Shown here one piece after another: positions 4,693 to 58,756 of a DNA stretch of 64,000 nucleotides. Below the pieces are notes generated by a model that searched no databases, was not told the DNA's origin, and saw nothing but the letters and a program-made list of their open reading frames with translations. The translations under genes and the position numbers were made by a program. This DNA comes from Bacteroidota bacterium. Lineage in GTDB: Bacteria > Bacteroidota > Ignavibacteria > Kapaibacteriales > UBA2268. Each line of letters begins with the position of its first letter. Position 1 is the stretch's first letter. The stretch is from assembly GCA_022707965.1 (NCBI GenBank), contig JAKIZO010000002.1:33841-97840 (forward strand), written 5' to 3'.

Positions 4693-4812
4693 GGTAGCAC
4701 AGACATTCCTGTCTGTGGTTTCTAACAGTGCGAAAAAGGTTTGTTTTATTCAATCTTGGTTATATATTTCAAGGCTTAGAACCTTCCGAAGGGCGGGAAC
4801 CTTCGGAAGGCT
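4693..4812. repeat. Composite intergenic repeat: module A (4693-4717), linker, inverted pair of module B (4774-4812)
   Basis: GGTAGCACAGACATTCCTGTCTGTG, then ..TTATTCAATCTTGGTTATATATTTCAAG, then GCTTAGAACCTTCCGAAGGGCGGGAACCTTCGGAAGGCT. Lies just 3' of the gene ending at 4822. Confidence 0.85.
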
Positions 4813-4821
4813 ACGAACACC

Positions 4822-7323
4822 TTATTCTTCTTTCCATTTCTCGACAAGATTGGCGTATTTGTTGCATAGCGAGACGGCGGTTTCGTAGTCGTCCGCTTCT
4901 CCGTAAACAGTGAATATAGGGCGTTCCTTCGATGGTAGCAAAAGTGCGCAGGTATTGCCATCGAACACCTTCACACCCTCGACCAATTGCCGTTGCATAC
5001 CTTCCGAGTGTTCCATTGCGTGTCTCATCACAGTGCCTTTGGCATTCCACGGAACGCTAACATCTCTGCTATAAACAAAGCGATGCGGTAATTTTTCGTC
5101 GAGAGTGGAAATCTTGCAATTAGTTTGTGCGAGCATTTCAAGTATTTTGCCGAGCGAATACATTCCGTCGGATGCAAATAGAAAATCGCGGAAAATAAAT
5201 CCACCCCAAACTCCACCAACAAACAAAACAGCGTCGTCGAGCGTTGCGTCCATCATCGCAGAGTGAGAATTCTTGATGCGGACAACCTCAACGTTGTAAT
5301 CCTTCGCAATTTGTTCGATTTCTTGCGACGCAACAATAGAAACCGCAATTTTGTATGGCTCGCGATGGCGGTTTGTCTCCAAAAAGAGCTTCGTTACAAT
5401 CGACAGCAAACGCATTGGATGATACCAGGTGCCTCTTTCGTCGATTATAGAGATTTTTTCAGCGCCCGATTCTATTCTAAATCCGAGTTCGTAACCAAGC
5501 GAACGCATAATTTTGCCCGTTTCGTCGGTTGTCGAATGCTGCGAAAGCGGGTCGGGATGGAACATTGTCGAATCAACATAGTTGTTCAGCGAAATTGCCT
5601 CCACACGCAACTTACCCAACAAGCTTGGTAGAATAGTCGAGGCAAGTCCGTATGAATAATCGACAAGCAATTTATATTTGCGATTTTGGATTAATTCTAC
5701 ATCAAGCGAATCAAGAAAACGATTTATGTAGATTTCATTAGTCCTTTCGGGATAAGAGATTTTGCCAATTTGGGAATAATGAACGCGTTTGATGTCCTCG
5801 CCGAAGAAGAAACGCTCGATTTTTTTCGCCATATTGATAGAAATATCCCTGCCATCTTTGTTGAAGATGATGATATCGGTCTGGTCGGGGTCGCGTGGGG
5901 AACGCCTAACGTGAAGCCCGCCATCGTAGCGACCGGTACGCAATTCCTGACGAGTTTGCGGAATAGAAGTAGTTTGCAAGTCGCTAATGTTAACGCCGAC
6001 TGAGGCAAGCCCGGCAGTAATCGAACGCTTCATAATGCGCGAAATGTTCGATGGGTCGCGCGAAGCAAGCAGTAGCGCCTTCGCTCCGAAAGCAAGTCCC
6101 AGCGCCGCACCTAATTTTGTGCCGAAATCGGGGTGTATTTCAATATTCGATATACCGGAAATTCGTGCATCTGTAAATATTTCGCGTTGCCATTTTTCTT
6201 CCTGAATTAACGAGAACGAAACCGAAGCACCTTCCTCAACTTGTTTGTCGGGCCACAATTTTATGTTCGATTTTAAGATTGCATTGTCCCCGATTTTGCA
6301 ATTGTCGGAAATGAAAACATTTTCGCCGACGACAACAGAATTGCCAATTTCGACGTTATTGCAGACCACATCATCGGTCATTTTGACGAAATCGCCGAGC
6401 TTGCAATTATTCCAGAGCGTTGCCCTGATTAATTTAACACCGTTGCCAATTACGCAGTTGTCCCCGATGGTGCAGTCGATAAGTTCGGAATATTTGCCGA
6501 TTGTAACATTGTTGCCGACAAGCACTTTACCCCCAAATTTAGCAGTCGGGGCAATATTGCAGTTGTTGCCGCGTGTCAGGTTGCCTTGCTCGGTGCCTTT
6601 TTTCTCAACTTTTATCACGCCCGTAAGAGCGTCGTATTGCCCGATAATGTATTCATCAAGATTGCCGACATCGCGCCAGTATCCATCGGCAATATAGCCA
6701 TAGAGCGGCATTCCGAGTTCGAGCATTTTGGGGAACAAATCTTTGCTAAAATCGAATTCTTCGCGATACGGTATCATATCGAGCACTTCGGGTTCTAAAA
6801 TGTAGATGCCTGTATTGATAGTATCAGAGAACACCTGTCCCCAGGAAGGCTTTTCCAAAAATCGGGTGATTTTGCCATCGTCGTCTGTCATAACAATACC
6901 GTATTGAAGTGGTGTATCGACGCGAGTAAGCAAAATAGTTGCTTTTGCGTTCTTGCTTTTGTGAAATTCAATTGCCTTAGTCAAATCATAATCGGTAAGC
7001 ACATCACCACTGATAATAATAAAACGCTCGTCGAGAAATTCGTAAGCGTTTTTTACACTTCCGGCTGTTCCATAGTCAGCTGCTGCTTGAACATAATCCA
7101 TATCAACATCGAAGCGACTGCCATCCTCGAAGTAACTTGTGATTTTCTCTGGCTGGAAGTAAAGCAACGAAACGATTTTATTAATGCCGTGCTTTTTAAG
7201 TAGATTAACTATATGTTCCATCATTGGGATATTAACAATTGGCACCATTGGCTTTGGAATGTTCATTGTAAGCGGGCGTAGTCTTGTGCCAAAACCACCT
7301 GCCATAATGACTGCTTTTTTCAT
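4822..7323 (-). CDS. Fused sugar-1-phosphate nucleotidyltransferase (with left-handed beta-helix) and phosphohexomutase (PMM/PGM-like)
   Basis: N-terminus MKKAVIMAGGFGTRLRPLT (NTP-transferase G-rich loop), hexapeptide-repeat region (VIGNGVKL.. VEIGNSVVVGENV), and a C-terminal half with PGM/PMM-like domains. 833 aa. Confidence 0.75.
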   Translation of the reverse strand: MKKAVIMAGGFGTRLRPLTMNIPKPMVPIVNIPMMEHIVNLLKKHGINKIVSLLYFQPEKITSYFEDGSRFDVDMDYVQAAADYGTAGSVKNAYEFLDERFIIISGDVLTDYDLTKAIEFHKSKNAKATILLTRVDTPLQYGIVMTDDDGKITRFLEKPSWGQVFSDTINTGIYILEPEVLDMIPYREEFDFSKDLFPKMLELGMPLYGYIADGYWRDVGNLDEYIIGQYDALTGVIKVEKKGTEQGNLTRGNNCNIAPTAKFGGKVLVGNNVTIGKYSELIDCTIGDNCVIGNGVKLIRATLWNNCKLGDFVKMTDDVVCNNVEIGNSVVVGENVFISDNCKIGDNAILKSNIKLWPDKQVEEGASVSFSLIQEEKWQREIFTDARISGISNIEIHPDFGTKLGAALGLAFGAKALLLASRDPSNISRIMKRSITAGLASVGVNISDLQTTSIPQTRQELRTGRYDGGLHVRRSPRDPDQTDIIIFNKDGRDISINMAKKIERFFFGEDIKRVHYSQIGKISYPERTNEIYINRFLDSLDVELIQNRKYKLLVDYSYGLASTILPSLLGKLRVEAISLNNYVDSTMFHPDPLSQHSTTDETGKIMRSLGYELGFRIESGAEKISIIDERGTWYHPMRLLSIVTKLFLETNRHREPYKIAVSIVASQEIEQIAKDYNVEVVRIKNSHSAMMDATLDDAVLFVGGVWGGFIFRDFLFASDGMYSLGKILEMLAQTNCKISTLDEKLPHRFVYSRDVSVPWNAKGTVMRHAMEHSEGMQRQLVEGVKVFDGNTCALLLPSKERPIFTVYGEADDYETAVSLCNKYANLVEKWKEE

Positions 7324-12759: not shown

Positions 12760-13271
12760 GTAGGGGTATGGTATGCCGTGCCTCTACATCAACGCTTAGA
12801 ACCTTCGGAAGGGCATGAACCTTCCGAAGGTTTTTTTTAATGGTAGCACGGACATTCTTGTCTGTGGTTTCCAATGGCGAGAAATACGCTTATTTTATTC
12901 AAGGTTGGTCTAATATTACAGCGCTTATAACCTTCGGAAGGTTTGGAACCTTCCGAAGGTTTTTTATCAGCGGTAGCACAGACATTCTTGTCTGTGCAAT
13001 ATACATTGTATCAATCACCAGAAATCGCCTGAACCTTCCTAAGGTTTTTTATCAGCGGTAGCACAGACATTCTTGTCTGTGTGATGAACATTGTAATAGG
13101 CATAAATCGCCATAACCTACGGAAGGTTTTCTTCTTTTTGTTTGTGCAATGCACATTGAAAATAAATGAATTTTTCAGAAAGGAATGTCTGAACTACTAT
13201 TTAGGAAAAAATATCAGTATTAATCAGGTTGTCTCGCAATAACGAAGCTTAGAACCTTCGGAAGGTTTTTT
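12760..13271. repeat. 0.5 kb cluster of repeat modules: C (12760-12787), three intact A (12842, 12972, 13057), one degenerate inverted A (13176-13194), at least seven B
   Basis: Read directly from the sequence. Fills the convergent gap/htrA intergenic region. Confidence 0.9.
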
Positions 13272-19587: not shown

Positions 19588-19626
19588 TAAAATAAAATAA
19601 AAAAACTATATCAAAAGTGTATTATT

Positions 19627-19790
19627 AGAACCTTCGAGGTTTGTCTCGTAATTGCCAGGTTTTCATAATTTGGTAGCACAGACATTCTTGTCTGTGAATT
19701 ATCACAGCGAAATTTGTTTTTTTCAATCAAGTTTTATCGTAATTTCAAAGCTTTGAACCTTCGGAAGGCTTTAAACCTTCCGAAGGTTTT
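19627..19790. repeat. Composite repeat: degenerate B (19627-19642), A (19672-19696), B pair (19750-19790)
   Basis: GGTAGCACAGACATTCTTGTCTGTG followed by AATTATCACAGCGAAA. GCTTTGAACCTTCGGAAGGCTTTAAACCTTCCGAAGGTTTT. Confidence 0.85.
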
Positions 19791-19826
19791 CATCATTGCG
19801 ATATTTTTTGACCATTGTAAAAATAA

Positions 19827-19854
19827 GACCTTTTAAGCTTACGCCTAAAAGGTC
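19827..19854 (-). terminator. Rho-independent terminator-like hairpin after the carboxyltransferase gene
   Basis: GACCTTTTA - 10-nt loop - TAAAAGGTC, followed on the minus strand by TTATTTTT. Confidence 0.6.
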
Positions 19855-19887
19855 GGTGATTGTTTTCTATGTCCCTATGAAACTATC

Positions 19888-21513: not shown

Positions 21514-21744
21514 ACCAAACTCTTTTATTGTTGAAAAAACTTGAATTGCATAAGCAATTCGAATGCAATTTAGTCTTAATTAAAAACAAGTGCAAGAAAA
21601 ATCGTCTATTCGTTTATTATTTATCGATATATTTTTATCGTATTAATTCCAACTTAATTAATTCTTTAAAAAATAAATTTTTTATGATTAATTCATTTGT
21701 TTATTTTTGTTACTAATTATTTTTTATTTCGTTATCTATATTAA

Positions 21745-23293: not shown

Positions 23294-24166
23294 ATGCTAC
23301 TTAATCAAAAAATAATAAAGGAAGAGGAAAATAAATTTTTGAATGATAGTAATAATTCATTATTATTTGAATTGATAAATAACAAGTTCGAAAATACTGA
23401 ACAAATAAAATTAAAGCATAAAAAAACACTATTATTGAATGCAGACGTACTTGAAGAAAATTTGTTCGATAAGGAATACTTTGATTTAATAGTAACTTCA
23501 CCACCCTACAATGTTGATATTCAATACAACTCGCACAAAGATGATTTAACTTATGAAGAATATCTTGAATTTTCCGAAGCCTGGATGAGAAACTGCCTCA
23601 GGTGGACAAAACAACAAGGAAGATTTTGCTTGAACATACCTCTTGATAAAAACAAAGGTGGTCAAAAAAGTGTTGGAGCTGATTTAACAGCATTAGCTCA
23701 AAAAGTTGGCTGGAACTATCATTCTACAATCATCTGGAACGAGGGAAATATCTCACGGAGAACTGCCTGGGGGTCGTGGCTGTCCGCTGCTGCTCCTTAC
23801 GTTATCGCTCCGGTAGAGCTGATTGTAGTATTATTCAAGGGCGAGTGGAAAAAGACAACAGGTTCGAAAATTTCAGATATTTCGAAAGACGATTTTATGA
23901 AATGGACGAATGGACTTTGGACTTTTAATGGTGAAAGCAAAAAACGAATTGGGCATCCGGCACCTTTTCCGATTGAATTGCCTTATAGATGTATAAAATT
24001 ATTCAGCTACGTCGATGACCTTGTCTTAGACCCATTCGCTGGTAGTGGCACAACACTCATCGCAGCAAACAACACAAACAGATATTCTATCGGGTTGGAA
24101 ATTGATATAAAATATTGTGAATTAGCAAAAAACAGAATTATAAATGAAACGGAAATGCTTTTCTAA
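23294..24166 (+). CDS. Beta-class N4-cytosine/N6-adenine DNA methyltransferase (SPPY type, likely m4C)
   Basis: Motif IV DLIVTSPPYN precedes motif I LDPFAGSGTT (beta permutation). HPAPFPIELP motif present. Confidence 0.85.
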   Translation: MLLNQKIIKEEENKFLNDSNNSLLFELINNKFENTEQIKLKHKKTLLLNADVLEENLFDKEYFDLIVTSPPYNVDIQYNSHKDDLTYEEYLEFSEAWMRNCLRWTKQQGRFCLNIPLDKNKGGQKSVGADLTALAQKVGWNYHSTIIWNEGNISRRTAWGSWLSAAAPYVIAPVELIVVLFKGEWKKTTGSKISDISKDDFMKWTNGLWTFNGESKKRIGHPAPFPIELPYRCIKLFSYVDDLVLDPFAGSGTTLIAANNTNRYSIGLEIDIKYCELAKNRIINETEMLF

Positions 24167-24180
24167 CACTATGATAACCT

Positions 24181-24774
24181 ATGGAAAAGAAAAAAAGTAT
24201 AACTGATTTAATCATCGAGTATTTTAAAAAACATCCGAATATCGAGCTACATCATTCACCTGTCGTTGATTGGGTCGAAGAAAAATATAAATCACTATAC
24301 AACAAAAAACCAAGAGACACCTGGCGAGCGATCAGAATGTTACATCAAAAAGGTTTTCTAATTAAAGTAAAAAAAGGTGTGTATAAATACGACCCAGATT
24401 TTGCTAAAAACAGGCAAATCGAAGATTTCACACCAGAACAGAAAATTGAAATATTGAAAAGAGATGATTATAAATGTGTTATTTGCGGAAGGAGTGCAAA
24501 AGAAGGGTATGAACTTCACGTGGACCATATTTTACCAAAAGACAAAGGTGGCAAAGCTACATTAGAAAACGGTCAAACTCTTTGTTCAATATGTAATTTC
24601 AGAAAGAAAAATTATAATCAAACAGAAAGCGGGAAAAGAATGTTTATCAGGTTGTGGGAAACTGCAAAAAGAATTGGGGACACAGATACAGTTAAATTCT
24701 GCGAAGAAATATTAAAAACTTATGAAAAATTTGGAATTAACGGACATATCGAGTGGAAACAAAATAGCGAGTAA
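24181..24774 (+). CDS. HNH nuclease with an N-terminal winged-helix-like domain; putative restriction endonuclease partner
   Basis: HNH/Zn motif CVICGRS..HVDHILPKDKGG..NGQTLCSICNFRKKN. Starts 14 nt downstream of the methyltransferase stop. Confidence 0.7.
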   Translation: MEKKKSITDLIIEYFKKHPNIELHHSPVVDWVEEKYKSLYNKKPRDTWRAIRMLHQKGFLIKVKKGVYKYDPDFAKNRQIEDFTPEQKIEILKRDDYKCVICGRSAKEGYELHVDHILPKDKGGKATLENGQTLCSICNFRKKNYNQTESGKRMFIRLWETAKRIGDTDTVKFCEEILKTYEKFGINGHIEWKQNSE

Positions 24775-24808
24775 TAGAAACTCTATCTGCTAACACACAA
24801 AATTCAAT

Positions 24809-24840
24809 AGCCGCACATTCGGAAGTGTGGCTTATTTTAT
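24809..24840 (+). terminator. Rho-independent terminator-like hairpin after the HNH gene
   Basis: AGCCGCAC - ATTCGGAA - GTGTGGCT (one G-U pair), followed by TATTTTATTT. Confidence 0.6.
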
Positions 24841-24886
24841 TTCAATTGCGGTACTTAAACTTATTAGCACAGTCTTTTTATATAAT

Positions 24887-25096
24887 AAACCTTCGGAAGG
24901 TTCCAAACCTTCCGAAGGTTCTAAGCTTTGTAATTCGATAAATGCTCAATTTAAATTATATTTGTTTATACATTGTGTATTGCACAGACAGGAATGTCTG
25001 TGCTACCGTTTTTTCACTGTCCAGTCCACAGACAGGAATGTCTGTGCTACCATAATAAACCTTCCGAAGGTTCACGTCCATCGGAAGGTTATAAGC
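24887..25096. repeat. Repeat cluster: B pair (24887-24926), two direct copies of inverted module A (24983-25007, 25027-25051), B pair (25057-25096)
   Basis: CACAGACAGGAATGTCTGTGCTACC occurs twice, 44 bp apart. Lies between the HNH gene and the etfA 3' ends. Confidence 0.9.
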
Positions 25097-25145
25097 TTAA
25101 TATTTTTATAGCATTAGCAAAGTTTTATTACTTCGCAAGAAGGAA

Positions 25146-26864: not shown

Positions 26865-26901
26865 TCTCTCTCCTTTAATATGTTGAAAAGAATACATCTT
26901 A

Positions 26902-26909
26902 CAAATATA
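26902..26909 (-). promoter_or_regulatory. Candidate -7 element (TAnnTTTG) for etfBA
   Basis: The minus strand reads TATATTTG, 37 nt upstream of the etfB ATG. The 14-bp palindrome CTTTTTCGAAAAAG lies just upstream at 26922-26935. Confidence 0.35.
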
Positions 26910-26947
26910 ATTGATTTTTCGCTTTTTCGAAAAAGAAAATTACAAAG

Positions 26948-27233
26948 GTTAGGAGCAATTCTTGAATTGCCCCTACATATAACCTTCCGAAGATTTTTAT
27001 AAGGTAGCATAGACATTCTTGTCTGTGGGATACTCGACTGCATTATTCGCCATTAAATCCCGAAGGTTTTCCTTTATTACCAGACTTGGAACCTTCGGAA
27101 GGTTTGGAACCTTCCGAAGGTTTATATCAGGTAGCACAGACATTCTTGTCTGTGCAATACTCGACTGTATAATTCGCCATTAAATCCCAAAGGTTTTCCC
27201 TTTATTACCAGGCTTAGAACCTTCGGAAGGTTT
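26948..27233. repeat. Repeat cluster: degenerate C (26948-26977), then a tandem duplication with a 127-bp period of an A-linker-B unit (A at 27003 and 27130)
   Basis: The two units align almost base for base (..ATACTCGACTG[C/T]AT[T/A]ATTCGCCATTAAATCCC[G/A]AAGGTTTTCC..TTTATTACCAG[A/G]CTT[G/A]GAACCTTCGGAAGGTTT). Confidence 0.9.
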
Positions 27234-27334
27234 ATTAATAATATGTGATCTCGCTACGCAAAATACTATTGAATTGGGAAGTTATTCGAAAATAAAATGG
27301 TTAGGAACATTGCAAGATTGTGAAATTTAATTAG

Positions 27335-27342
27335 TATATTTG
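27335..27342 (+). promoter_or_regulatory. Candidate -7 element (TAnnTTTG) for the CcrM-like methyltransferase
   Basis: TATATTTG lies 8 nt before the ATG at 27351. This implies a near-leaderless transcript or use of the downstream ATG at 27363. Confidence 0.3.
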
Positions 27343-27350
27343 TAAAAAAA

Positions 27351-28535
27351 ATGGTTCGAACTATGGACAAGTTAGGCATTTTTGAATTGAACAAAATATA
27401 TCAGGGTGATTGCATTGAATTGATGAAAAACATACCTGATAATTCTGTTGATTTAATCTTTGCCGACCCACCTTACAATTTACAATTAAACGGCGAACTG
27501 TATAGACCAAATCAGACAAAAGTAGATGCTGTTGATGATGAATGGGATAAATTCTCGACAATGGAAGAGTATGATAAATTCACTTATTCGTGGATGCAGG
27601 AATGCCGACGAATACTTAAAAACACGGGCAGTTTTTGGGTTATTGGCACCTATCATAATATTTTTAGAGTTGGTGCTATTCTTCAAAATATTGGTTTCTG
27701 GATACTAAACGACATAATATGGATAAAAACAAATCCAATGCCAAATTTTAAAGGGACAAGGTTCAACAATGCTCACGAAACATTAATTTGGGCGACTAAA
27801 TCGAAGTCATCTAATTATACTTTTCATTATCATTCTATGAAAGCGATGAACGATGATTTGCAGATGAGAAGCGATTGGTTAATTCCTATTTGTCAGGGAA
27901 CAGAGAGAATTAAAATCAACGGGCAAAAAGCACACTCGACACAAAAACCAGCTGAGCTTTTGTATCGCATAATACTATCTACTTCAAATCCAGGTGATAT
28001 TGTGTTAGATCCATTTTGTGGAAGTGGCACTACCGCCGCTGTTGCAAAACGTCTTGGCAGAAGGTTCATCTCTTTTGATAAAGAAGAATTATACGTAAAA
28101 ATTGCTTCGGAGAGAGTTAATAAAATTAAACCTATCGATAAAAAATTACTCGAATATAAAGTAGAAAAACGAAAACCAAAGGTGCCTTTTGGAAACTTAA
28201 TTGAAAAAGGCTACATTAAAATTGGTGAGACTTTGTTTTCCCGAGATGGCAGATTTAAAGCAATTGTGTTAGCTGATGCTTCTTTGGAAGGTGACGGAAT
28301 TGTGGGGTCGATACACAAAGTAAGTGCGTATTATTTGGGCAAAGAAAGTAACAACGGTTGGAGTTTCTGGTATGTAAAACGGGATAATAAATTAATATGT
28401 ATTGATGAATTAAGACACGATTACGAAAACAGATTTTTAAAAGATGAAAATCATAATAATCAATTACAATTTGATAAAATAGAAGACTTTAGTAATGAAG
28501 CAGAAGGAGATTTTTTGAGTTATGGCAATTGTTGA
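27351..28535 (+). CDS. CcrM/M.HinfI-family beta-class N6-adenine DNA methyltransferase (predicted GANTC specificity)
   Basis: Long collinear similarity to Caulobacter CcrM as I recall it: [103 protein letters not shown], plus the CcrM-type C-terminal domain. Confidence 0.9.
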
Positions 28536-35113: not shown

Positions 35114-35268
35114 AAAACACCTTTAATTAATGGAAAAAAAAGAGAGAACTAATAAAAAATTAGTATTTAAAAATTTACTTTGCTCTATAACGTTATTTTT
35201 CAAGGATTTCGCTACATTTTGCAAAACACACGATGTAAATATATAAAGTTTTTCAACAACTTACAACA

Positions 35269-35316: not shown

Positions 35317-35336
35317 AAAATCTTTGGAAAATTTGC

Positions 35337-35557
35337 GGTAGCACAGACATTATTGACTGTGAATTATCACAGCAAAATTTTGTTCATATTATTCAAGGTT
35401 GGTTGAATATTGCCAGGCTTTGAACCTTCGGAAGGTTTTTATTTATCAGCGGTAGCACAGACATTCCTGTCTGTGATTTATCACAGCGTGAAATTGGTAT
35501 AATAAATAAATTAGGGGCGTATCGTGATACGCTCCTACCTGGAACCTTGCGAAGGTT
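35337..35557. repeat. Repeat cluster: degenerate A (35337-35361), linker and B (35417-35440), A (35451-35475), C variant (35511-35539), degenerate B (35541-35557)
   Basis: Read directly from the sequence. Lies between the HU promoter region and the 3' end of the SurA-like gene. Confidence 0.85.
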
Positions 35558-35573
35558 ATTTCATTTTGTGCTA

Positions 35574-37601: not shown

Positions 37602-37723
37602 AATTCCTTACCTCTATGAGAATTAACAATTTGTCTGCAAAATATTAAGTAAATTACTATTTTTTTTTTGAATTACAAAGAAATCGAACTTTTGCGGGAA
37701 TGTATTTGAATTGATTGGCGATT

Positions 37724-37820
37724 AGGAATGTACCCGCTACCGCTGAAAAAGGAAAACCTTCGGAAGGTTGTAAGCCTGGTGATTAGTGTAAAGCCTCGAA
37801 GGTTCTAAGCCTGGCGATAT
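37724..37820. repeat. Degenerate repeat remnants (A-like 37724-37743, B 37755-37769, B-like 37795-37805)
   Basis: AGGAATGTACCCGCTACCGC compared with AGGAATGTCTGTGCTACCGC. AAACCTTCGGAAGGTTGTAAGCCTGG and CCTCGAAGGTTCTAAGCCTGG. Confidence 0.6.
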
Positions 37821-37927
37821 TCCTCTTCCTTTCATTATATCATTTTTATTTTACAATCGTTTATATTATTTCATTTATATTGTAAATTTTATTAATATTG
37901 CTAATTCTTGATAACGAAAATGAGAAA

Positions 37928-39883: not shown

Positions 39884-40794
39884 TGAGCAAAGGCAACATA
39901 CTCAAAACCATCTACAACGAGGTAATGGAATTTTCCGACCAGCTGGACGACAACCATACCTATATGCTTGCTGCAGGAATTGCCTTCAATATTGCGCTGT
40001 ATGTAATTCCGTTGTTTTTGCTTTCGATTTATCTTGTAAATGCTTTCATTGATATAAATCAGCTTTCGGACGTAATTGAGAAAATGCTTTCGGATTTCCT
40101 GCCGCCGACAAAGTCCTCGAAAGAGATAATTCACACAGTGCTGGAAGAAGTAAAGAAGATAAACTTGCATAGCAATGCCGCAGGAATTATCGGGCTTGTT
40201 TCGCTGTTGTGGATTTCGTCTATTCTTGTGTCGTCTTTGAGGTCGGGTCTGAATGCAATTTTTCACATTCCCGCAAAAAAGATATTCATCATCTACCGCT
40301 TGTATGATATTTTGCTGACAATTATTATCACAATTTTAATTTTGATTTATTCCTACCTTGTTCCAATTGGCAATTTTGTTATTTCGTTTCTGGAAAGTTT
40401 CTTCCCTGATTTCATACATAAAATAATAAGTGGTGCGCTTGTAACTCTGATTTCGCTTGTTTCGTCGTTTGTGATATTTTTCTTTATCTACACATTTATT
40501 CCGACAAAGCGAATGCCATTTTTTGTAATATTTTGGAGCACAGTTGGGTGTGTCGTACTCATTGAAATTGCCCGCCATATTTTTGGGTGGTATATTAGCG
40601 GAATTAGCAACTACGGCAAATTCTACGGCACTTTTGCGGTAGTGATTTCGATGGCAATCTGGATATATTATTCCTCGTTTATCTTGCTATTTTCGGGCGA
40701 ACTTGTAAATTTCATCTATAAAAAGCGTCAAATAAGTAAAGCAGAAAGCACCACGGGCGGCGAACCAACCGAAAGCACAGCTACCGAATTATAG
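39880..40794 (+). CDS. YihY/BrkB-family membrane protein
   Basis: ATGA start/stop overlap with the upstream gene. Six predicted TM segments. The AAGIAFNIALYVIPLFLL motif region is typical of YihY. Confidence 0.65.
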   Translation: MMSKGNILKTIYNEVMEFSDQLDDNHTYMLAAGIAFNIALYVIPLFLLSIYLVNAFIDINQLSDVIEKMLSDFLPPTKSSKEIIHTVLEEVKKINLHSNAAGIIGLVSLLWISSILVSSLRSGLNAIFHIPAKKIFIIYRLYDILLTIIITILILIYSYLVPIGNFVISFLESFFPDFIHKIISGALVTLISLVSSFVIFFFIYTFIPTKRMPFFVIFWSTVGCVVLIEIARHIFGWYISGISNYGKFYGTFAVVISMAIWIYYSSFILLFSGELVNFIYKKRQISKAESTTGGEPTESTATEL

Positions 40795-43452
40795 TTTCAT
40801 TCCTATGCTGAAATACAAAGCGGGTCTGCCAAAGGCAATTTCCCCATTTTCTTTGAAATAGAAGCTTCTGCCGACGGCGAACCGACCTGGTCCGAGCGGT
40901 GTGTCCATTTCGAAGGCAATTCCCCCGCAGTGAAGAAAATCTTTGAGTGCAATTTCGTCCGTCTGCAACCAAACGTTGCCTAAATCATACCTTGCTGATA
41001 GATATGTATCGAAATATATCTGAAATGGTAGTTTATATCGGGCTTCGAGCGATGCAGTGAAAATCTGCCGACCGCGTTCGGCGTCCTCGCGCAAGCCGTA
41101 GAAACTTGATTGTCCGCCCAGCGAGAAAAATTCAGCCTGCGGTAGCGTTTTATCTGCCGCACCAAACGAAACCGCCGGGCGAATAGTTACATTCTCAATT
41201 GTCAGATTATGATGGTAATAAAAGTATGCTTTGGAGAAACTCACCGACGGTTCGATTGCAATTGCGCCTGTTTCGAGATATAGCTCAATTCGCTGTCCGC
41301 TTCGCGCAAGGAACGAACGGTCCTCGCTATCGAAAATTGTTGCCACCTTTATTGTAGAAATATTGGAAAAGTTTGGTTTAGCCGCATTTTTTGCAAAATA
41401 GCGTTGCTTTTCTAATCTGTATGCAAAGGAAATTGTGCCATTTTTGTCCAGCTGCCGACCGAAATTAGCAATACCGCCAAAGCGTTCTATTGTGGTTTCA
41501 CCTGTTTTGTTGTACTTAAAGTGGTAAGGCGAAGTTCTCTCGAAGCTGAAAATATTTATATCGCGGTAGGAATAATACATCGCTGCCGATAGCGAGAAGT
41601 CCGTTTTGAAGATGCGGGGATTTTCGAGCAGCAAAACATAATCCTGATTGCGGGAACCAATAGTTGTGCGCGCCGAAAGTCGGACGCCCGCATTGAACAA
41701 ATTTTCCTGAATTGCGTCGATTGCAGCCTGACCGTAGCGCTCGCTATCGACTTTTCCGCCTATGCGAAGCGTTTGGGTGCCACCTTCGGTTACCTTTACG
41801 ATGACAACTTTCTTTGCATTTTCTAAATTTTCCTCAATATCTATTTCCACATTAGAGAAAAGCCCCGTTTTTACCAGGTTGTTCCACCCACGGACTAATT
41901 TTTCAGCATTGAGCACCTGCCCGACTTTGAATTTTAGCTCGCGCTGTATGAGAAAATCGCTTGTTTCTTCGTTCCCGATGATAACTATTTCGCCGATGGT
42001 GCCTTCGTCAATTGTAAGAAACAAATTGCCGAAATTATCAACTCTTTCGTTTGTGATAATGGCGTAAGAATAGCCTTCGGAACGGTATTTTTTCAGCAAA
42101 TCTTCCTTAACGGTGGTAATTCCACGCGGCGAGAGCGGAAGCGAAGGATTATTACGCACATAGTTTTGTGCAAATTCTGCGACGGCAGGATTTTCAACAC
42201 CTGCCAAATTTATCGAAGCAAGCGAAGGAAATTTCGTAGCGACAAATTTTACAGTATCTGAAAAAATAATGAGTTCGATTTGCTTGTATTTGTCTGTTTC
42301 GAGTAGTTTTATTACTAAATCGTTGTATTGGTCCTGGCTGAAAATTGAAGCAAGTGCTTGCTCGATAATTTCGCTTTCGGTGCTATCGAAGCCCGCAGTG
42401 GCAATTGATTTGCCCCGAAGCAAATCAATAGAGAAATCTTTGTGATATTCGTTGAGTTTTGAATGGAATTTGGAACGGTATTTTTGTTGAATTAGCGGCA
42501 CCAGATGTTCCGTAGCAATGCGTCCGGCACGGATAAGAGTGTCCAGGTGCGAAAAATCGGTGTTTTTGTGGCGGCCAATGTTTGGTGTAATGATAAAATC
42601 AGCGTATTCTTTTTGCTTGCGGGTGAATTTGTCCATCGAGATGGTAATCAACTGGTCGGCAATATTCCAGGGTGTGTTCAAATCTTCCGAATTTAGTTTA
42701 GGCGAAACGGTATTGATAGCGATAATCAAATCGGGCGAAAATTCAAGTGCTTGCTCGGCGGGAATATTTGCAAAGATGCCACCATCGACAAGTATTTGCC
42801 CGTTGGTGCGAATTGGCGTGTATCGCAGCGGAACAGTTGCGCTTGCACGTATCGCAGTGATAATATTGCCCGATTTCTGCGAAATTGATTCCCCCGAAAC
42901 AATATCGGTTGCCACCGCCCGAAACGGAAATTTCAAATTGTCGAAATTGCCGTGCGGTTTATACAAACTATTCCAGAAAACGCGTTGTAGAGTGATATTA
43001 AATTGGTCGCCTGCGGAAATTGCTTCGGGAACGACAAATTTGAAATTTTTGAAGCGAAAAGTAATTTGCGAGCGGTCTTCGATTATCTTCTGGTCTAAGA
43101 ATAAATCTGTACGGTTGTTTTGCTCTTTGAGAGAAAAAATATCGTTCCAATTGATTGAATATATGAGCGAGTCGAGTTCGAACGGGGAGTATCCCGAAGC
43201 AAGCAAGCCGCCGATTATAGAACCAATGCTTGTTCCGATGATTGAGTGGTAAGGTATTCGATTTTCTTCGAGCACTTCGAGCGAACCCACCTGCGAAATA
43301 CCGCGAGCACCGCCGCCGCTTAGCACTAACGCAACGCGTGGGCTAATTTCGCTCATAGATGGGTAAGTTATTTTTAAGATTTCGGCAGCAGCCCCTGATT
43401 GAAAAATCAGGAAAAGCAAGAACGCAGCGAATATTTTTCTAATATTGCTCAC
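40789..43452 (-). CDS. Patatin-like phospholipase fused to a POTRA/Omp85 beta-barrel (PlpD/FplA-like, type Vd autotransporter architecture)
   Basis: Signal peptide. Patatin motifs GGGARG, GTSIGS (GxSxG) and DGG (LVDGGIFANIP). The C-terminal roughly 450 aa is beta-barrel-like and ends in aromatic-rich strands (..ALYFSIGMKL). Confidence 0.8.
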   Translation of the reverse strand: MSNIRKIFAAFLLFLIFQSGAAAEILKITYPSMSEISPRVALVLSGGGARGISQVGSLEVLEENRIPYHSIIGTSIGSIIGGLLASGYSPFELDSLIYSINWNDIFSLKEQNNRTDLFLDQKIIEDRSQITFRFKNFKFVVPEAISAGDQFNITLQRVFWNSLYKPHGNFDNLKFPFRAVATDIVSGESISQKSGNIITAIRASATVPLRYTPIRTNGQILVDGGIFANIPAEQALEFSPDLIIAINTVSPKLNSEDLNTPWNIADQLITISMDKFTRKQKEYADFIITPNIGRHKNTDFSHLDTLIRAGRIATEHLVPLIQQKYRSKFHSKLNEYHKDFSIDLLRGKSIATAGFDSTESEIIEQALASIFSQDQYNDLVIKLLETDKYKQIELIIFSDTVKFVATKFPSLASINLAGVENPAVAEFAQNYVRNNPSLPLSPRGITTVKEDLLKKYRSEGYSYAIITNERVDNFGNLFLTIDEGTIGEIVIIGNEETSDFLIQRELKFKVGQVLNAEKLVRGWNNLVKTGLFSNVEIDIEENLENAKKVVIVKVTEGGTQTLRIGGKVDSERYGQAAIDAIQENLFNAGVRLSARTTIGSRNQDYVLLLENPRIFKTDFSLSAAMYYSYRDINIFSFERTSPYHFKYNKTGETTIERFGGIANFGRQLDKNGTISFAYRLEKQRYFAKNAAKPNFSNISTIKVATIFDSEDRSFLARSGQRIELYLETGAIAIEPSVSFSKAYFYYHHNLTIENVTIRPAVSFGAADKTLPQAEFFSLGGQSSFYGLREDAERGRQIFTASLEARYKLPFQIYFDTYLSARYDLGNVWLQTDEIALKDFLHCGGIAFEMDTPLGPGRFAVGRSFYFKENGEIAFGRPALYFSIGMKL

Positions 43453-44966: not shown

Positions 44967-45191
44967 TTCAAGGTTGGTCGAATATTTAGAGGCTGAGAAC
45001 CTTCGGAAGGTTTTCTTTATTCGGGGCACATCGTAGGGGCACGGCATGCCGTGCCCCTACATAGTACCATCTTTAATCATCGGTAGCACAGACATTCCTG
45101 TCTGTGATTTCTGTTGCCACAAAAAAGGTATTTTTATATAATGTAGGGGCGTATTGCGATACGCCCCTACCTGGAACCTTCCGAAGGTTTT
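44967..45191. repeat. Repeat cluster: linker and B (44967-45014), C (45033-45060), A (45082-45106), second C variant (45143-45170), B (45174-45190)
   Basis: TTCAAGGTTGGTCGAATATTT..GCTGAGAACCTTCGGAAGGTTTT. GTAGGGGCACGGCATGCCGTGCCCCTAC. GTAGGGGCGTATTGCGATACGCCCCTAC. Confidence 0.9.
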
Positions 45192-47980: not shown

Positions 47981-48020
47981 AAAACTTCGGAAGGTTTGAA
48001 ACCTTCGGAAGGGTCTAAGC
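47981..48020. repeat. Two B modules in direct orientation
   Basis: AAAACTTCGGAAGGTTTGAAACCTTCGGAAGGGTCTAAGC. Confidence 0.7.
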
Positions 48021-48713: not shown

Positions 48714-50588
48714 CTACTTCTTCTTCAATGGCTTTGGTTCAATCATATTTTCGGGCGAAAGAATTTCGTCGAGTTGTTCTTTTGTGAGCAGGTTTTTCTC
48801 TAAAACGAGTTCGTAGATACCGCGATTTGTTTCGAGTGCTTCTTTTGCAAGAGCGGAACTTGCTTCGTAGCCAATGTATGGGTTGAGTGCGGTAACCAGT
48901 CCAATACTATTTTCAACGTAGGCGCGGCATCTTTCCACATTTGCTGTAATTCCATCGATGCAACGCAATTTCAAAGTTTTGATACCGTTTATCAGCATTT
49001 CCATAGATTCAAAAATACTTTGAGCGATAACAGGTTCCATCACATTCAGCTGCAACTGTCCTGCTTCGGCAGCCATCGTTACAGTCAAATCGTTGCCAAT
49101 TACCTTGAACGCAATTTGATTGACAACTTCGGGAATTACGGGATTGACCTTGCCCGGCATAATGGACGAGCCCGGTTGCATAGGTGGCAGGTTTATTTCG
49201 TTCAATCCCGCACGCGGACCCGAGCTTAGCAAGCGCAAATCATTGCAAATCTTCGATAATTTTATCGCAAGGCGCTTCACTGCCGATGAGAAAATCACAA
49301 ATGCACCTGTGTCTTGCGTTGCTTCCACAAGATTTGAAGCAGATTTGACGGGCAAACCTGTAATTTCCCAGAGATATTGAATAACCAATTCACGGAATTT
49401 GGGGTCAGCGTTTATTCCCGTGCCAATTGCCGTTCCGCCCATATTGACTTCGAGCAGCAGACGAGCGTTCGCTTCGAGACGTTGAATTTCCTCTTCCAGA
49501 GTATCGGCAAAGGCACCGAATTCCTGCCCGAGCGTCATCGGAACAGCATCTTGCAGCTGAGTTCGTCCCATTTTGATAACGTTTGCGAACTCTTTCGATT
49601 TATTGCGGAACGAAGAAATGAGTTCTTTCAACGCTTCCACTAAATTTTGACTTTCGTAAATAATAGCAATATTCAGAGCAGTTGGATAAGCATCGTTTGT
49701 CGATTGCGATAGATTTATATGATTATTCGGGTGGCAATGTTCGTAGTCGCCACGTTCGTAGCCCATAATTTCAAGGGCACGGTTTGCAATTACCTCGTTT
49801 GCGTTCATATTGGTTGAAGTTCCGGCACCGCCCTGGATAACATCAACGATAAAATGAGTGTGCCACTTGCCGTGAATAATTTCTTCGCAAGCTTCGAAAA
49901 TAGCTTCCGCCATACGCGGTGGAAGCAGTCCAAGAGCAAAATTCGCTTTCGCAGCGGCAAGTTTGACCTGCGCAAGTGCCTTTATCAGCAAAGGATAGTG
50001 CGAAATTGCAACGCCTGTGATATTGAAATTCTCGTAACCGCGGAGCGTCTGAATGCCATAATAGAATTCGTACGGCACTTCGCGCCAACCGAGCAGGTCG
50101 TGTTCGCGGCGGGTGCGTCCCGAAATATATTGAGCGGCTGCGTCTGCTACCTGGTTTGTAGTCTGACGCATACGGCGGGAAATTACTCTTGCAACACGCG
50201 AAAGGATTTTGACAACGGCTTGTGCCTGCGATTGCATAAGATTGTTTAGTTTTTCGCGGTGCAGCTGAATGATTGTGCTATCGAGGGCTGCTCTTGCCGA
50301 AGTTGAATGGGGATAGTCGTCCATCAGCGCGCCTTCGCCAAGAAAGTCGTATTTCCCGAATACTGTAAGGATTTTCTCACTTCCGAACGTTGTGCTTTTG
50401 ACAAGTTCGATTTCACCATCGGCAATCATATAAAGGTGAGTGCGTGGAGCGTTTTCCTCGAATAATTTTTCGCCTTTTTTGATTTTGCGGACTTCTGCTT
50501 GATTTGCAATTAGCGTAATTTCCTCGTCGCTTAGGTCCTTGAAAAGCTCTATTTCCTTGATAAACTTTTGAATTTCTTCAACTTTCAT
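48714..50588 (-). CDS. aspA: Cyclic-nucleotide-binding domain fused to aspartate ammonia-lyase
   Basis: The C-terminal roughly 470 aa are collinear with E. coli AspA as I recall it (GGAGTSTNMN, SQSTNDAYPTA, KMGRTQLQDAVPMTLGQEF, GSSIMPGKVNP). The N-terminal roughly 150 aa are CAP_ED-like (FKDLSDEE.., GEKLFEE.., FGEGALM). ATG at 50588 is preceded by GGAGAAAAAT. Confidence 0.85.
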   Translation of the reverse strand: MKVEEIQKFIKEIELFKDLSDEEITLIANQAEVRKIKKGEKLFEENAPRTHLYMIADGEIELVKSTTFGSEKILTVFGKYDFLGEGALMDDYPHSTSARAALDSTIIQLHREKLNNLMQSQAQAVVKILSRVARVISRRMRQTTNQVADAAAQYISGRTRREHDLLGWREVPYEFYYGIQTLRGYENFNITGVAISHYPLLIKALAQVKLAAAKANFALGLLPPRMAEAIFEACEEIIHGKWHTHFIVDVIQGGAGTSTNMNANEVIANRALEIMGYERGDYEHCHPNNHINLSQSTNDAYPTALNIAIIYESQNLVEALKELISSFRNKSKEFANVIKMGRTQLQDAVPMTLGQEFGAFADTLEEEIQRLEANARLLLEVNMGGTAIGTGINADPKFRELVIQYLWEITGLPVKSASNLVEATQDTGAFVIFSSAVKRLAIKLSKICNDLRLLSSGPRAGLNEINLPPMQPGSSIMPGKVNPVIPEVVNQIAFKVIGNDLTVTMAAEAGQLQLNVMEPVIAQSIFESMEMLINGIKTLKLRCIDGITANVERCRAYVENSIGLVTALNPYIGYEASSALAKEALETNRGIYELVLEKNLLTKEQLDEILSPENMIEPKPLKKK

Positions 50589-50616
50589 ATTTTTCTCCAA
50601 TTAAATGAAAATTTAG

Positions 50617-50781: not shown

Positions 50782-51711
50782 ATGAATGATTTAACAAAAA
50801 GAGTATTAGTTGCCGCCGTTGGAATTCCGTTTGCTTTGCTTATAATTGTGTTAGGCGGTTTTCCTTTTTTTATCACTGTCTCGTTTATTTCATTGATTTC
50901 ATTGCTGGAATTCTACTCGCTTGCGGAAAAAAAAGGATTTGCCCCGCACAAAATTAATGGGACAATATTTGGGATTATCCTTCAGATGGTGTTCTTTATT
51001 CAGTTCAGCCATTTTGGGAAGCTTAGTCCGTTTATGTCGGCAATATTGATATACCTGTTTTTTGTGCTTGTAACACTGATTTGCGAGACGTATTCGAAAA
51101 ACCCGAACAAAATAGCAAACGTCGGTGTTACTGTTCTTGGGATATCGTATATTTCGATATTTTTTATAACGTTCTATATAATGCGGGAGTTTAATTATTT
51201 CCTGTATTTGTTTGATATTCACGTAAAATCCTTTGCGCTTGGTCAGAATTTTGCACTACTTACGCAGTTGCTTAAAATTGCACCTGAACGGTGGGCTTTT
51301 TTGATTATCACAATGCTTGGGTCAATTTGGGTGTGCGATAGTGCCGCATATTTCATTGGCAGAGCGATTGGCAAGCACAAACTTTTCGAGCGCATTAGCC
51401 CGAAAAAAACAATCGAAGGAGCAATTGCTGGATTTGTGTTTGCAATATTGGCGTTTGTCGGACTAGGAGAATTGTTTTTGGCTGAAATACCGGTAGTGCA
51501 TTTTATTGTAGGCGGTTCAATAGTCGGGGTGTTGGGACAATATGGCGATTTGGCTGAATCAATGCTGAAACGCGACGCCGGCGTAAAAGATAGCTCGAAC
51601 CTATTGCCCGGGCACGGCGGCGCACTCGATAGGTTCGACAGTATTTTGTTTGTTTCTCCGTCTTATTTTATATATCTGAGTATTGTAATATTTTTTGATT
51701 TAGGGATATGA
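50782..51711 (+). CDS. cdsA: Phosphatidate cytidylyltransferase
   Basis: SDSAAYFIGRAIGKHKL, SPKKTIEG, and the C-terminal signature KRDAGVKDSSNLLPGHGGALDRFDS. Confidence 0.9.
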   Translation: MNDLTKRVLVAAVGIPFALLIIVLGGFPFFITVSFISLISLLEFYSLAEKKGFAPHKINGTIFGIILQMVFFIQFSHFGKLSPFMSAILIYLFFVLVTLICETYSKNPNKIANVGVTVLGISYISIFFITFYIMREFNYFLYLFDIHVKSFALGQNFALLTQLLKIAPERWAFLIITMLGSIWVCDSAAYFIGRAIGKHKLFERISPKKTIEGAIAGFVFAILAFVGLGELFLAEIPVVHFIVGGSIVGVLGQYGDLAESMLKRDAGVKDSSNLLPGHGGALDRFDSILFVSPSYFIYLSIVIFFDLGI

Positions 51712-52265
51712 GCAGAACAGCACTAATTGCCGTAGCGCAAGGAACAGAGGAAATTGAAGCAATCGCTCCGGCTGATTTATTGCGCCGGGCAAACTTCAAC
51801 GTAAAAATTGCAGGCGAAAACGAGATTATCACTTGCTCGCGCGGTGTGAAAATTATTCCTGACCTGCTTATCGAGCAACTCAATAGCGACGTCGAATTCG
51901 ATATAATCATTCTTCCGGGCGGTCGCACCGGCACTTTGAATTTGCTCAACAACGATAAACTCGAAAAGCTACTTCGCAAGCACTACGAGCGTGGCGGCTG
52001 GATTGGAGCAATTTGCGCCGCACCGACTATTCTCACGCAACACAAGATTTTGCCTAAGGGCTCGCCCGTTGCGGCACACCCATCAGTTCGCGAAATGCTG
52101 GTCGAGTATGATTATTCAGATGCTGCGGTTGTAGTGTATGAACGTTTCATTACAAGTCGCGGTGCGGGCACAAGCATAGATTTCGCTCTGAAAATCATCG
52201 AACTACTGCTAAGCAAAGAAACCGCCGACCAAATAAAAAGCGACATTGCTTATGATAGATTGTAG
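51708..52265 (+). CDS. DJ-1/PfpI-family protein
   Basis: Nucleophile-elbow Cys (GAICAAP). 185 aa. Overlaps the cdsA stop by 4 nt. Confidence 0.85.
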   Translation: MSRTALIAVAQGTEEIEAIAPADLLRRANFNVKIAGENEIITCSRGVKIIPDLLIEQLNSDVEFDIIILPGGRTGTLNLLNNDKLEKLLRKHYERGGWIGAICAAPTILTQHKILPKGSPVAAHPSVREMLVEYDYSDAAVVVYERFITSRGAGTSIDFALKIIELLLSKETADQIKSDIAYDRL

Positions 52266-52377
52266 GGGCAATTCTTGAATTGCCTCTACATAGAACCTTT
52301 GGAACATTTCCATATTGGTAGCATAGACATTCCTGTCTGTGAAATTCACATCGCCATAACCTTCCGAAGGTTTTTTT
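52262..52377. repeat. Composite repeat: C variant (52262-52289, overlapping the DJ-1 gene stop codon), A (52317-52341), B (52358-52377)
   Basis: GTAGGGGCAATTCTTGAATTGCCTCTAC. GGTAGCATAGACATTCCTGTCTGTG. ATCGCCATAACCTTCCGAAGGTTTTTTT. Confidence 0.9.
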
Positions 52378-53721: not shown

Positions 53722-53729
53722 AAAAATAA

Positions 53730-55104: not shown

Positions 55105-55389
55105 AAACCTTCGGAAGGTTCTATGCCTCGAAATATTCGACCAACCTTGAATAAAATAAACCTATTTCTCTGCATTGGAAACCACAGACAGAAATGTCTG
55201 TGCTACCGCTGATAAATGGGAAACCTTCGGAAGGTTCCCGTCCTTCCGAAGGTTATAAGCGTTGCAATATTCGACCAACCTTAAATGAAATAAACGTATT
55301 TCTCTCGATTGGGAACCACAGACAGGAATGTCTATGCTACCGAATAAAAAAACCTTCGGAAGGTTCCCGTCCTTCCGAAGGTTCTATGC
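55105..55389. repeat. Tandem array (period about 115-135 bp) of inverted-orientation composite units: B, linker, A(-) at 55183 and 55317, with B pairs at 55221 and 55350
   Basis: AATATTCGACCAACCTT[G/A]AAT[A/G]AAATAAAC..TTTCTC..GGAAACCACAGACAG[A/G]AATGTCT[G/A]TGCTACC occurs twice. AAACCTTCGGAAGGTTCCCGTCCTTCCGAAGGTT occurs twice. Confidence 0.9.
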
Positions 55390-58506: not shown

Positions 58507-58530
58507 TTTGCGCTTTATTAATCGCGTTTA

Positions 58531-58756
58531 TAACCTTCGGGGCTTTACTTGTAATTTCCAGGCTGAGAACGACTAAAGCCTCTAATTCTAACTGCTCCAA
58601 CGCTTGGCTTTACTTGTAATTTCCAGGCTGAGAACCTTCGGAAGGTTTGGAACCTTCCGAAGGTTTTTATAAAAAAGGTAGCACAGACATTCCTGTCTGT
58701 GTGTCAGAAACATTCAGCCATAGGTGGCTTGAACAGACAAGAATGTCTGTTCTACC
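58531..58756. repeat. Repeat cluster: 30-bp perfect direct repeat (58541-58570 and 58606-58635), B pair (58627-58668), inverted doublet of module A (58677-58701 plus strand, 58731-58756 minus strand)
   Basis: GGCTTTACTTGTAATTTCCAGGCTGAGAAC occurs twice. GGTAGCACAGACATTCCTGTCTGTG, 29 nt, then GAACAGACAAGAATGTCTGTTCTACC. Confidence 0.9.

Follow-up and report, generated by a model that had tools for sequence, protein, structure and literature searches.

A dense, mosaic family of REP-RAYT-type hairpin repeats with strain-variable arrays in an uncultured Kapabacteria lineage

The 64-kb stretch of DNA analyzed here (64,000 nucleotides of contig JAKIZO010000002.1, assembly GCA_022707965.1; hereafter the window) stems from a member of the Bacteroidota and carries ordinary housekeeping genes of the FCB group, together with one protein that ends in a type IX secretion system (T9SS) sorting tail. 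The methylase encoded at 27351-28535 is 100% identical to proteins of Candidatus Kapabacteria bacterium. Exact matching of the LeuS and TopA proteins of the window gave no entry. An earlier note on this DNA had drawn attention to three short palindromic modules, named A, B and C, that recur in 13 intergenic regions, and had likened them to the kind of repetitive extragenic palindrome (REP) recognized by RAYT transposases. The modules do occupy exactly 13 spacers, and the data presented in the following reveal a genuine REP-RAYT-type repeat family with an unusual mosaic build, a wide spread for an identical hairpin and a measurable turnover between strains. RAYTs are Y1/HUH transposases of the TnpA-REP type that bind and cut GTAG-footed hairpins in single-stranded DNA, for example in the lagging-strand template, and REP-RAYT systems stand as a prime example of bacterial selfish DNA that is "domesticated" or persists over long times. 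To the best of our knowledge, work on these systems has dealt almost exclusively with Proteobacteria, in which every lineage has a REP of its own.

Module A (GGTAGCACAGACATTCCTGTCTGTG) is a 25-mer that consists of GGTAG, an 8-bp stem and a TTCY loop. The window contains 17 copies with no more than three mismatches, while none are expected from shuffled sequences, and GGTAG is positioned immediately 5' of the stem in all 17 of them; the earlier count of at least 17 copies is thereby confirmed. On the plus strand, the copies are located at 4693-4717 and 35451-35475 (both free of mismatches), 12842-12866 (two mismatches), 12972-12996 and 13057-13081 (both with the loop TTCT), 19672-19696, 27003-27027, 27130-27154, 35337-35361 (three mismatches and a damaged stem), 45082-45106 (flanked by two C modules), 52317-52341 (one mismatch) and 58677-58701. 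Those on the minus strand lie at 24983-25007, 25027-25051, 55183-55207 (loop TTTC), 55317-55341 (one mismatch) and 58732-58756 (three mismatches). The start positions listed before hold for every copy save the last one, which begins at 58732 rather than at 58731. A single additional copy (13174-13198, minus strand) is decayed and has six mismatches; set against 17 copies with at most three, this single relic marks the module A population as young or maintained.

Module B (AACCTTCSGAAGGTT) is present in 32 copies at up to one mismatch (0.03 expected in the window) and at 36 distinct positions when two mismatches are allowed, somewhat fewer than the roughly 40 copies proposed originally. The suggestion that many of them form hairpins proved correct, since 22 of the 36 copies combine into 11 inverted pairs with a 3-nt spacing and stems of 13-15 bp. 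These B-B' hairpins are found at 19756-19788, 55222-55254 and 55351-55383, with stems of 15 bp at 24888-24920, 27090-27122 and 58633-58665, and in an A-free spacer at 29481-29513. The pair at 4780-4812 has the order CCG...CGG, the pair at 47982-48014 is degenerate, and those at 12800-12832 and 12929-12961 (the latter with a 15-bp stem) are followed by T-runs and resemble terminators. Single B copies are situated at 13032-13046, 13114-13128, 13253-13267, 25058-25072, 26981-26995, 27218-27232, 35423-35437, 35543-35557, 44998-45012, 45175-45189, 52358-52372 and 55106-55120, and at 37755-37769 in a second A-free spacer. One more, at 128-142, falls within an open reading frame (ORF) and may be there by chance. 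Module B does not carry a GTAG tag.

Module C, a "double foot" element, has the structure GTAGGGGC-12 nt-GCCCCTAC, and its seven copies, each 28 nt in length, agree in number with the earlier description. Three of them are perfect (29411-29438, 45033-45060 and 45143-45170), and the other four deviate by one or two mismatches in the GTAGGGGC and GCCCCTAC feet (12760-12787, 26949-26976 and 35511-35538 with two each; 52262-52289 with one). The inner palindromes fall into three subtypes; 26949-26976 and 52262-52289 possess the AATTC subtype, and 35511-35538 and 45143-45170 the GCGTAT subtype. GTAG is read on both strands in five of the seven copies, while the other two have TTAG.

Spacers account for just 12% of the window, yet the A copies are intergenic without exception. 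The same holds for the B copies other than that at 128 and for the C copies, apart from a 4-nt overlap of 52262-52289 with the end of the ORF at 51708-52265. The modules are mostly located downstream of genes: ten A copies reside in convergent, five in co-directional and two in divergent spacers. As single-stranded DNA, modules A, C and B-B' have calculated folding energies of -7.5, -14.4 and -16.4 kcal/mol, respectively, with z values from -3.9 to -6.9. Scanning of the window with Rfam 15 gave no match at the gathering threshold, and a tRNA scan likewise yielded none.

The modules are not scattered independently of each other. The recurrent unit consists of module A, a linker of about 35-62 nt that belongs to one of a few types, and B or a B-B' hairpin; the resulting mosaic units range in size from about 45 to 135 nt. 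Both linker types reported previously were recovered, and so were the composite A-linker-B(B') units, which measure about 110-135 nt. The B' of a preceding unit is found 6-16 nt upstream of 11 of the 17 A copies, and the units therefore form head-to-tail arrays. Module C can take the place of A or stand between modules (29411, 45033, 45143). Since identical linker types recur in unlinked spacers, it is the whole unit and not the 25-mer alone that has been copied around. There is only one inverted, REPIN-like doublet of module A in the window, with the copy at 58677 (plus strand) as its left arm and that at 58732 (minus strand) as its right arm; all other copies are single or part of direct arrays.

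To assess the distribution of module A, we scanned a set with a single genome for each species, looking for the exact 25-mer with Y permitted at two positions. This search retrieved at least 102 stretches from at least 53 assemblies that represent at least 11 phyla, so that module A is by no means confined to the window, and it is carried by all strains of the species that we compared. The matches stem from Planctomycetota, Verrucomicrobiota (including the isolate Ereboglobus sp. PH5-10), Lentisphaerota, Acidobacteriota, Zixibacteria, Bacteroidota (Ignavibacteria, Kapabacteriales, Marinifilum, Chlorobiota), Hydrogenedentota, Sumerlaeota, Caldisericota, Aquificota, KSB1 and Desulfobacterota. 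Several of them are located on contigs of 1-3 Mb, and mis-binning thus does not explain the spread. In other taxa, module A is packaged as inverted doublets with conserved spacers of their own (42 nt in Kapabacteriales, 46 nt in Lentisphaerae and about 100-108 nt in Tepidisphaerales), and other lineages also possess direct arrays with a period of 30-45 nt. Long direct tandem arrays were noticed in other phyla in L033 (1050-1284), L007 (7325-7687), L015, L071 and L101 (loci are cited by our working numbers). Module B was absent from the other loci examined, among them 80 with RAYTs and about 25 that stem from Ignavibacteria and Kapabacteriales, and module C was represented beyond the species, among these loci, only by a related hairpin that flanks the RAYT gene of L142. 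By these sequence comparisons, modules B and C are lineage-specific. Among 2.9 million viral contigs (IMG/VR), two contain module A (L198, 11319-11402; L199, 4238-4261), one of them as an inverted doublet; neither carries a RAYT gene, and B-B' was found in no viral contig. With module A in only two viral contigs, phages are no obvious vector.

The RAYT gene flanked by inverted A modules that the earlier note had proposed to look for exists in other genomes: a Y1/HUH transposase gene adjoins an exact module A in 12 of the 102 loci listed, typically with inverted copies on both sides (L093, with copies at 7132 on the plus and 7666 on the minus strand; L023, L033, L080, L083 and others). The A-linked transposases pass the cut-off of the Pfam profile Y1_Tnp (PF01797) and all retain the HUH histidines as well as the catalytic-tyrosine motif, with the variants NHAH, DHIH, DHVH and NHVH, WQ, WR and WM, and Y[IM]xxNP. 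Relatives of these proteins carry the JGI annotation "REP element-mobilizing transposase RayT", and the family comprises 8,726 clusters at 50% identity (E <= 1e-10). An AlphaFold model of the RAYT (pLDDT 91) has its best match in the Protein Data Bank (PDB) in 4ER8, E. coli TnpA-REP bound to REP (TM 0.74; root-mean-square deviation 2.3 A), and is followed by IS200/IS608 transposases with TM values of about 0.5. The predicted fold and the identical hairpin beside Y1/HUH genes both support the reading of module A as a RAYT-type REP.

Independent evidence comes from RAYTs that we collected without regard to hairpins. When 80 family members were sampled from metagenomes by protein, nearly all of them proved to be flanked by inverted GT[AG]G-footed hairpins with stems of 7-10 bp and pyrimidine-rich loops, and those RAYTs that share 46% identity or more with the one of Ignavibacteria had stems of the form xxCAGACA/TGTCTGxx and a TTCY loop. 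We then assembled 81 distinct 24-mers from RAYT flanks by their unpaired features only (GTRG, N8, YTCY, N8). In this set, 93% of the stem positions pair, in comparison with 70% in shuffles, and none of 500 shuffles reached as high a value. Changes on both sides were found at all eight stem pairs, with 153 compensatory positions, a pattern of covariation from which we conclude that the stem is under selection. Together with the RAYT genes that it flanks, this covariation identifies module A as a REP in the strict sense; module C is probably a REP as well.

To follow the behavior of the arrays over short evolutionary distances, we compared 13 contigs of the same species, derived from several metagenomes and two metagenome-assembled genomes at NCBI, that are syntenic with about 17-38.5 kb of the window at 98.3-99.8% identity. 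These contigs were assembled independently and carry the same arrays, which rules out an assembly artefact. The number of units differs, by one to three tandem units, in three of the four A-bearing spacers and in neither of the two A-free spacers; the presence/absence variation between strains that had been suggested as a check is thus found. In the spacer 19588-19887, strains possess one or two copies of the composite unit that includes the module A at 19672. The spacer 24775-25145 has one, two or three units of 44 nt, two of which are present in the window (24983 and 25027), and the spacer 26898-27350 has one or two units of 127 nt, again two in the window (27003 and 27130) but a single unit in nine strain contigs. 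The A-bearing spacer 35127-35573 is invariant, and so are the A-free spacers 29392-29591 and 37602-37897. The combination of unit numbers varies from contig to contig, which points to several independent events. The only other large insertion or deletion consists of about 195 extra nucleotides near 21680 in two strain contigs (L109, 4257-4453; L110). It lies in the divergent spacer 21514-21744 between an HMGL-like gene and a gene for an extracytoplasmic function (ECF) sigma factor and includes a terminator-like hairpin; we considered it as repeat-related and rejected this, as its sequence is unrelated to the modules.

Several features of the surroundings of these arrays are worth recording. 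Two gene pairs of the restriction-modification type are positioned near each other, and both adjoin repeat-rich spacers: an N6/N4 methylase and an HNH nuclease (23294-24774), and a RAMA-domain methylase and a HinfI-like endonuclease (27351-29391). The latter pair is mobile and is found in unrelated contexts in other genomes; homologues of its methylase elsewhere showed no synteny with the window, and modules A, B and C were absent from the 40 kb examined there. On the plus strand at 27146-27173, TTGTCT from the 3' arm of module A and TATAAT from the type-2 linker make up a sigma-70-like promoter match (10 of 12 positions) that faces the methylase gene at 27351, a match of doubtful relevance if the organism uses promoters of the Bacteroidetes type. 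Farther away, the minus strand encodes an aspartate ammonia-lyase (48714-50600; lyase part about residues 162-624) with an N-terminal cyclic-nucleotide-binding, Crp-like domain (about residues 4-165), and a fusion of a patatin-like phospholipase to an Omp85/BamA-type beta-barrel (40789-43452), an architecture like that of a type Vd secretion protein.

Taking these data together, we consider it highly probable that module A, and probably module C, are RAYT-type REPs contained in mosaic units that are mobilized by a RAYT. In this scheme, units composed of A, a linker and the lineage-specific B or B-B' have spread to many spacers and mostly settled downstream of genes, beyond the genes' own terminators, and the head-to-tail arrays formed there gain or lose whole units between close strains. 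Each unit in such an array is bracketed by two direct A hairpins, in a manner reminiscent of the left and right ends of IS200/IS608 elements, and this arrangement would let a RAYT excise and reinsert the unit or duplicate it. We infer that the species still encodes a cognate RAYT, that this enzyme rather than replication slippage lies behind the changes in copy number, and that it would act on module A through the cleavage chemistry of RAYTs.

Alternatively, the hairpins, B-B' in particular, might serve the host as terminators, as stabilizers of mRNA 3' ends, or as nucleoid or insulator sites, and might have been selected for this function and spread by duplication, so that transposition would be irrelevant. 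We regard this as rather unlikely, although the B-B' hairpin with its 15-bp stem is stable (-16.4 kcal/mol), the two B-B' pairs with T-runs rank at the top of the list of terminator-like structures, and most modules lie 3' of genes, with 10 A copies in convergent and 5 in co-directional settings. Only two of the six B-B' pairs between 12 and 31 kb, however, satisfy the definition of a canonical terminator, and the flanking genes have unique terminator-like hairpins of their own near their stop codons (24809-24832, 29568-29537, 19854-19827 and 58762-58792), the first three of them nearer to the stops than the modules, which in several spacers are situated beyond these hairpins. Moreover, units in co-directional spacers are antisense to transcription as often as sense, two units lie inside the divergent promoter spacer 26898-27350, and a host function would leave both the GTAG tag and the RAYT linkage of module A unexplained. 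Module B is mostly not a canonical intrinsic (Rho-independent) terminator. We take it for a passenger or companion palindrome and not for a substrate of the transposase, with a terminator-like role possible at some sites.

A second alternative accepts module A as a REP but holds that the arrays are orphans: the species would have lost its cognate RAYT, and the arrays would change passively by slippage and unequal recombination only. A number of observations speak for this view and weigh against mobilization by a RAYT. The window does not contain a RAYT gene, as had been stated before (no match by tblastn; best six-frame hidden Markov model match E = 0.36), and none could be linked to the species: those proteins that are most closely related to the Ignavibacteria RAYT belong to other assemblies, and a metagenome search for the pattern of B, A and the N-terminal RAYT motif NLPHW returned no match. 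Three RAYT loci from sibling digester samples (L162, L166 and L167) were considered as the species' own and rejected, since their G+C content of 31-33% assigns them to other organisms. Every difference between strains is the gain or loss of a tandem unit, which would fit RAYT action on direct hairpins, by analogy to the ends of IS608, but for which slippage or unequal recombination accounts equally well; insertion at a previously empty site was not seen among the 13 strain contigs. Two more points weigh against mobilization only: module B has no GTAG and never lies beside a RAYT gene in the loci examined, so that part of the mosaic is left unexplained, and the single inverted A doublet in the window is unlike the REPIN unit of Pseudomonas. 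Nevertheless, we consider the orphan scenario improbable. A decaying population would not be expected to be as uniform as the one observed here, the window covers no more than about 2% of the genome, if a size of a few Mb is assumed, so that the absence of a RAYT gene from it says little, and RAYTs are present in related lineages that have this hairpin.

The succession of module A, a linker and a B-B' hairpin with a U-run also resembles the 5' stem-loop, single-stranded region and terminator of a small RNA, and the units might therefore be multicopy small-RNA genes. This is very improbable, since the 6-16 nt between the preceding B' and the next A would not accommodate a promoter, the linkers, which would contain the seed, are the least conserved part and belong to at least three unrelated types, Rfam provided no match, and the orientation towards neighboring genes is mixed. 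Descent from a classical (DDE) insertion sequence as miniature inverted-repeat transposable elements is hardly credible, even though units of about 110-135 nt are modular and dispersed to many spacers, because the ends A and B are unrelated and do not form terminal inverted repeats, solitary units show no sign of a target-site duplication, and the A end is common to RAYT flanks.

Returning to the RAYT-associated hairpins, we found that the exact CACAGACA stem adjoins three subtypes of the transposase. Members of a short type (L093, L034, L080 and L125) are 51-75% identical among themselves, those of a long type (L033, L004, L017 and L166) are 57-68% identical, and the two types share about 29-47% identity with each other; a third type (L083 and L047) is 24-34% identical to the other RAYTs compared. 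Conversely, the RAYTs of L034 and L119 are 70% identical and are accompanied by different stems (CACAGACA and GGTCAGACA, respectively), so that the identity of the hairpin does not simply follow the protein tree. Constraint accounts for some of the sharing, since the foot, the loop and the CAGACA core do not vary across the clade. Horizontal transfer, or the use of one REP pool by several RAYTs, may account for the remainder.

Outside of the window, we observed that whole REP-RAYT-REP units are often embedded in frame within large host genes, with the hairpins translated. Five of the six reading frames of module A are open, and the periods of intragenic arrays are multiples of three (30 nt in L033, 27 nt in L044, where an in-frame REP array lies within the RAYT domain). 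The hosts include very large restriction-modification proteins of the MmeI/Eco57I (type IIG) and ISP types (L023, 2180-6253; L004, 672-4856; L033, 2-3109; L017, 2510-4909; L044; L119, 49-4041; L167, 1-3780; and P0371), valyl-tRNA synthetase (L148, 1174-5196; L137, 1519-3969; P0471 and P0399), PurH (L170, 1693-4344; P0411), GcvP (L176, 442-4104) and RecG (P0376). In the last of these, the peptide VAQTFLSV, which module A encodes exactly, flanks the RAYT; GGTDIPVC and QTGMSVLP are further examples of linker peptides encoded by hairpins. In the restriction-modification hosts, the RAYT is mostly inserted between the motifs FYTPREIV and DPAxGSGAF; its position after DPAxGSGAF in L017 indicates independent insertions. 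Gene callers often split these RAYT-bearing proteins into halves of about 720-780 amino acids. Among the 80 sampled loci, 15 have the RAYT inside an open frame of at least 498 codons.

With the hairpins translated, the transposase would be produced as one domain of a protein that is often essential, in a position that may be compared to that of an intein without a splicing domain. Quentin et al. (2018; PMC6006769) set long RAYT proteins aside as "gene fusions or annotation errors", and our literature search for RAYTs embedded in host genes found no description of them. If confirmed, REP-RAYT units in essential genes would represent a new way for a transposase to persist. A tentative view that would unite these observations takes module A as the signature hairpin of a single REP-RAYT lineage that passed from phylum to phylum instead of descending within one line, the in-frame units in host genes as its second, undescribed lifestyle, and the arrays in the window as its intergenic, non-autonomous progeny.

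The dense REP family of the window belongs to the Kapabacteria, an uncultured branch of the Bacteroidota/Chlorobi group. Its strain-variable arrays could serve as natural strain markers in anaerobic-digester metagenomes, and an identical hairpin beside divergent RAYTs in at least 11 phyla bears both on strict vertical inheritance and on the constraint that a RAYT imposes on its substrate, for which the present data supply testable RAYT-hairpin pairs. As had been surmised, the family appears to be undescribed: a literature search found no paper with the sequences of modules A, B or C.

Among characterized systems, the REP sequences and bacterial interspersed mosaic elements (BIMEs) of E. coli, together with TnpA-REP (RAYT group 2/subclass 2.2), offer the most direct comparison. 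Both families are built from short extragenic hairpins with a 5' GTAG foot, occur in high copy number mostly downstream of genes, and form mosaics with conserved linkers; the RAYTs share the HUH and tyrosine motifs and, according to the model, the fold (TM 0.74). The hairpins, on the other hand, have no sequence similarity, and module A is shorter, with a perfect 8-bp stem, a 4-nt pyrimidine loop and no bulge. Units of module A are arranged directly, whereas those of BIMEs alternate, and the partner B is a non-REP palindrome without GTAG. The proteins are only about 18% identical, and the host is a member of the Bacteroidota/Kapabacteria instead of the Proteobacteria. Of the likeness to REP, BIME and BOX elements drawn in the earlier note, the REP hairpins and the conserved linkers are present, A copies within an array are direct rather than alternating, and BOX elements are only a loose analogy.

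In Pseudomonas, the REPIN, an inverted REP doublet, is said to have been recognized as the replicative unit by Bertels and Rainey in 2011, reportedly in connection with RAYT groups 2 and 3. Like the repeats studied here, REPINs are non-autonomous hairpins in need of a RAYT, which is mostly found in a single copy, and inverted A doublets with lineage-specific spacers do exist in other taxa. In the window, in contrast, the inverted doublet is rare (1 of 17 A copies), the unit consists of A, a linker and B, and the arrays are direct. While REPINs are described as lineage-specific and vertically inherited, the identical module A hairpin is found in at least 11 phyla.

The TnpAY1 subclass 2.4 of Quentin et al. 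(2018; PMC6006769) corresponds to RAYT group 4 of Bertels et al. (2017; PMC5581495). It has a patchy distribution over many phyla that include Bacteroidetes and Chlorobi, "double foot" REPs (GT[AG]G ... C[TC]AC), REPs inserted in frame within the transposase gene, and the motifs NH[IFV]H, WQ and YIxNNP (PMC6006769). The double foot of module C, the in-frame REPs in the RAYT of L044 and similar HUH, WQ and YIxxNP motifs match this description. Unlike group 4, for which about 14 copies of flanking 16-mers per replicon were reported (PMC5581495), the window alone contains 17 A copies, and its hairpin of 8 bp differs from the "long" REPs of that group. A placement in subclass 2.4, based on motifs alone, is possible, as is one in subclass 2.7.

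GTAG repeats, including intragenic REPs, have also been described in the PVC-group bacteria Opitutus terrae and Rhodopirellula baltica (Di Nocera et al., 2013; PMC3733652). These are short GTAG/GTGG hairpins, many of which lie in frame within genes, DNA-repair and tRNA-synthetase genes among them, and in both respects they resemble the family analyzed here. Kapabacteria and Ignavibacteria lie outside the scope of that paper. The module A core is absent from the text and supplements searched; the consensus sequences of the families are given in a figure, and one of GTAG-17 to GTAG-20 might be identical to module A.

Finally, the IS200/IS608 elements share with the present system a Y1/HUH transposase, subterminal hairpins in single-stranded DNA and the use of hairpins in the same orientation to bracket a mobile segment, as in the direct A...A arrangement. 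They differ from it in that the RAYT gene is located between inverted hairpins and in that the repeats vastly outnumber the transposase genes. In keeping with these differences, the predicted structure of the RAYT fits TnpA-REP much better than it fits the TnpA proteins of IS608 or ISDra2.

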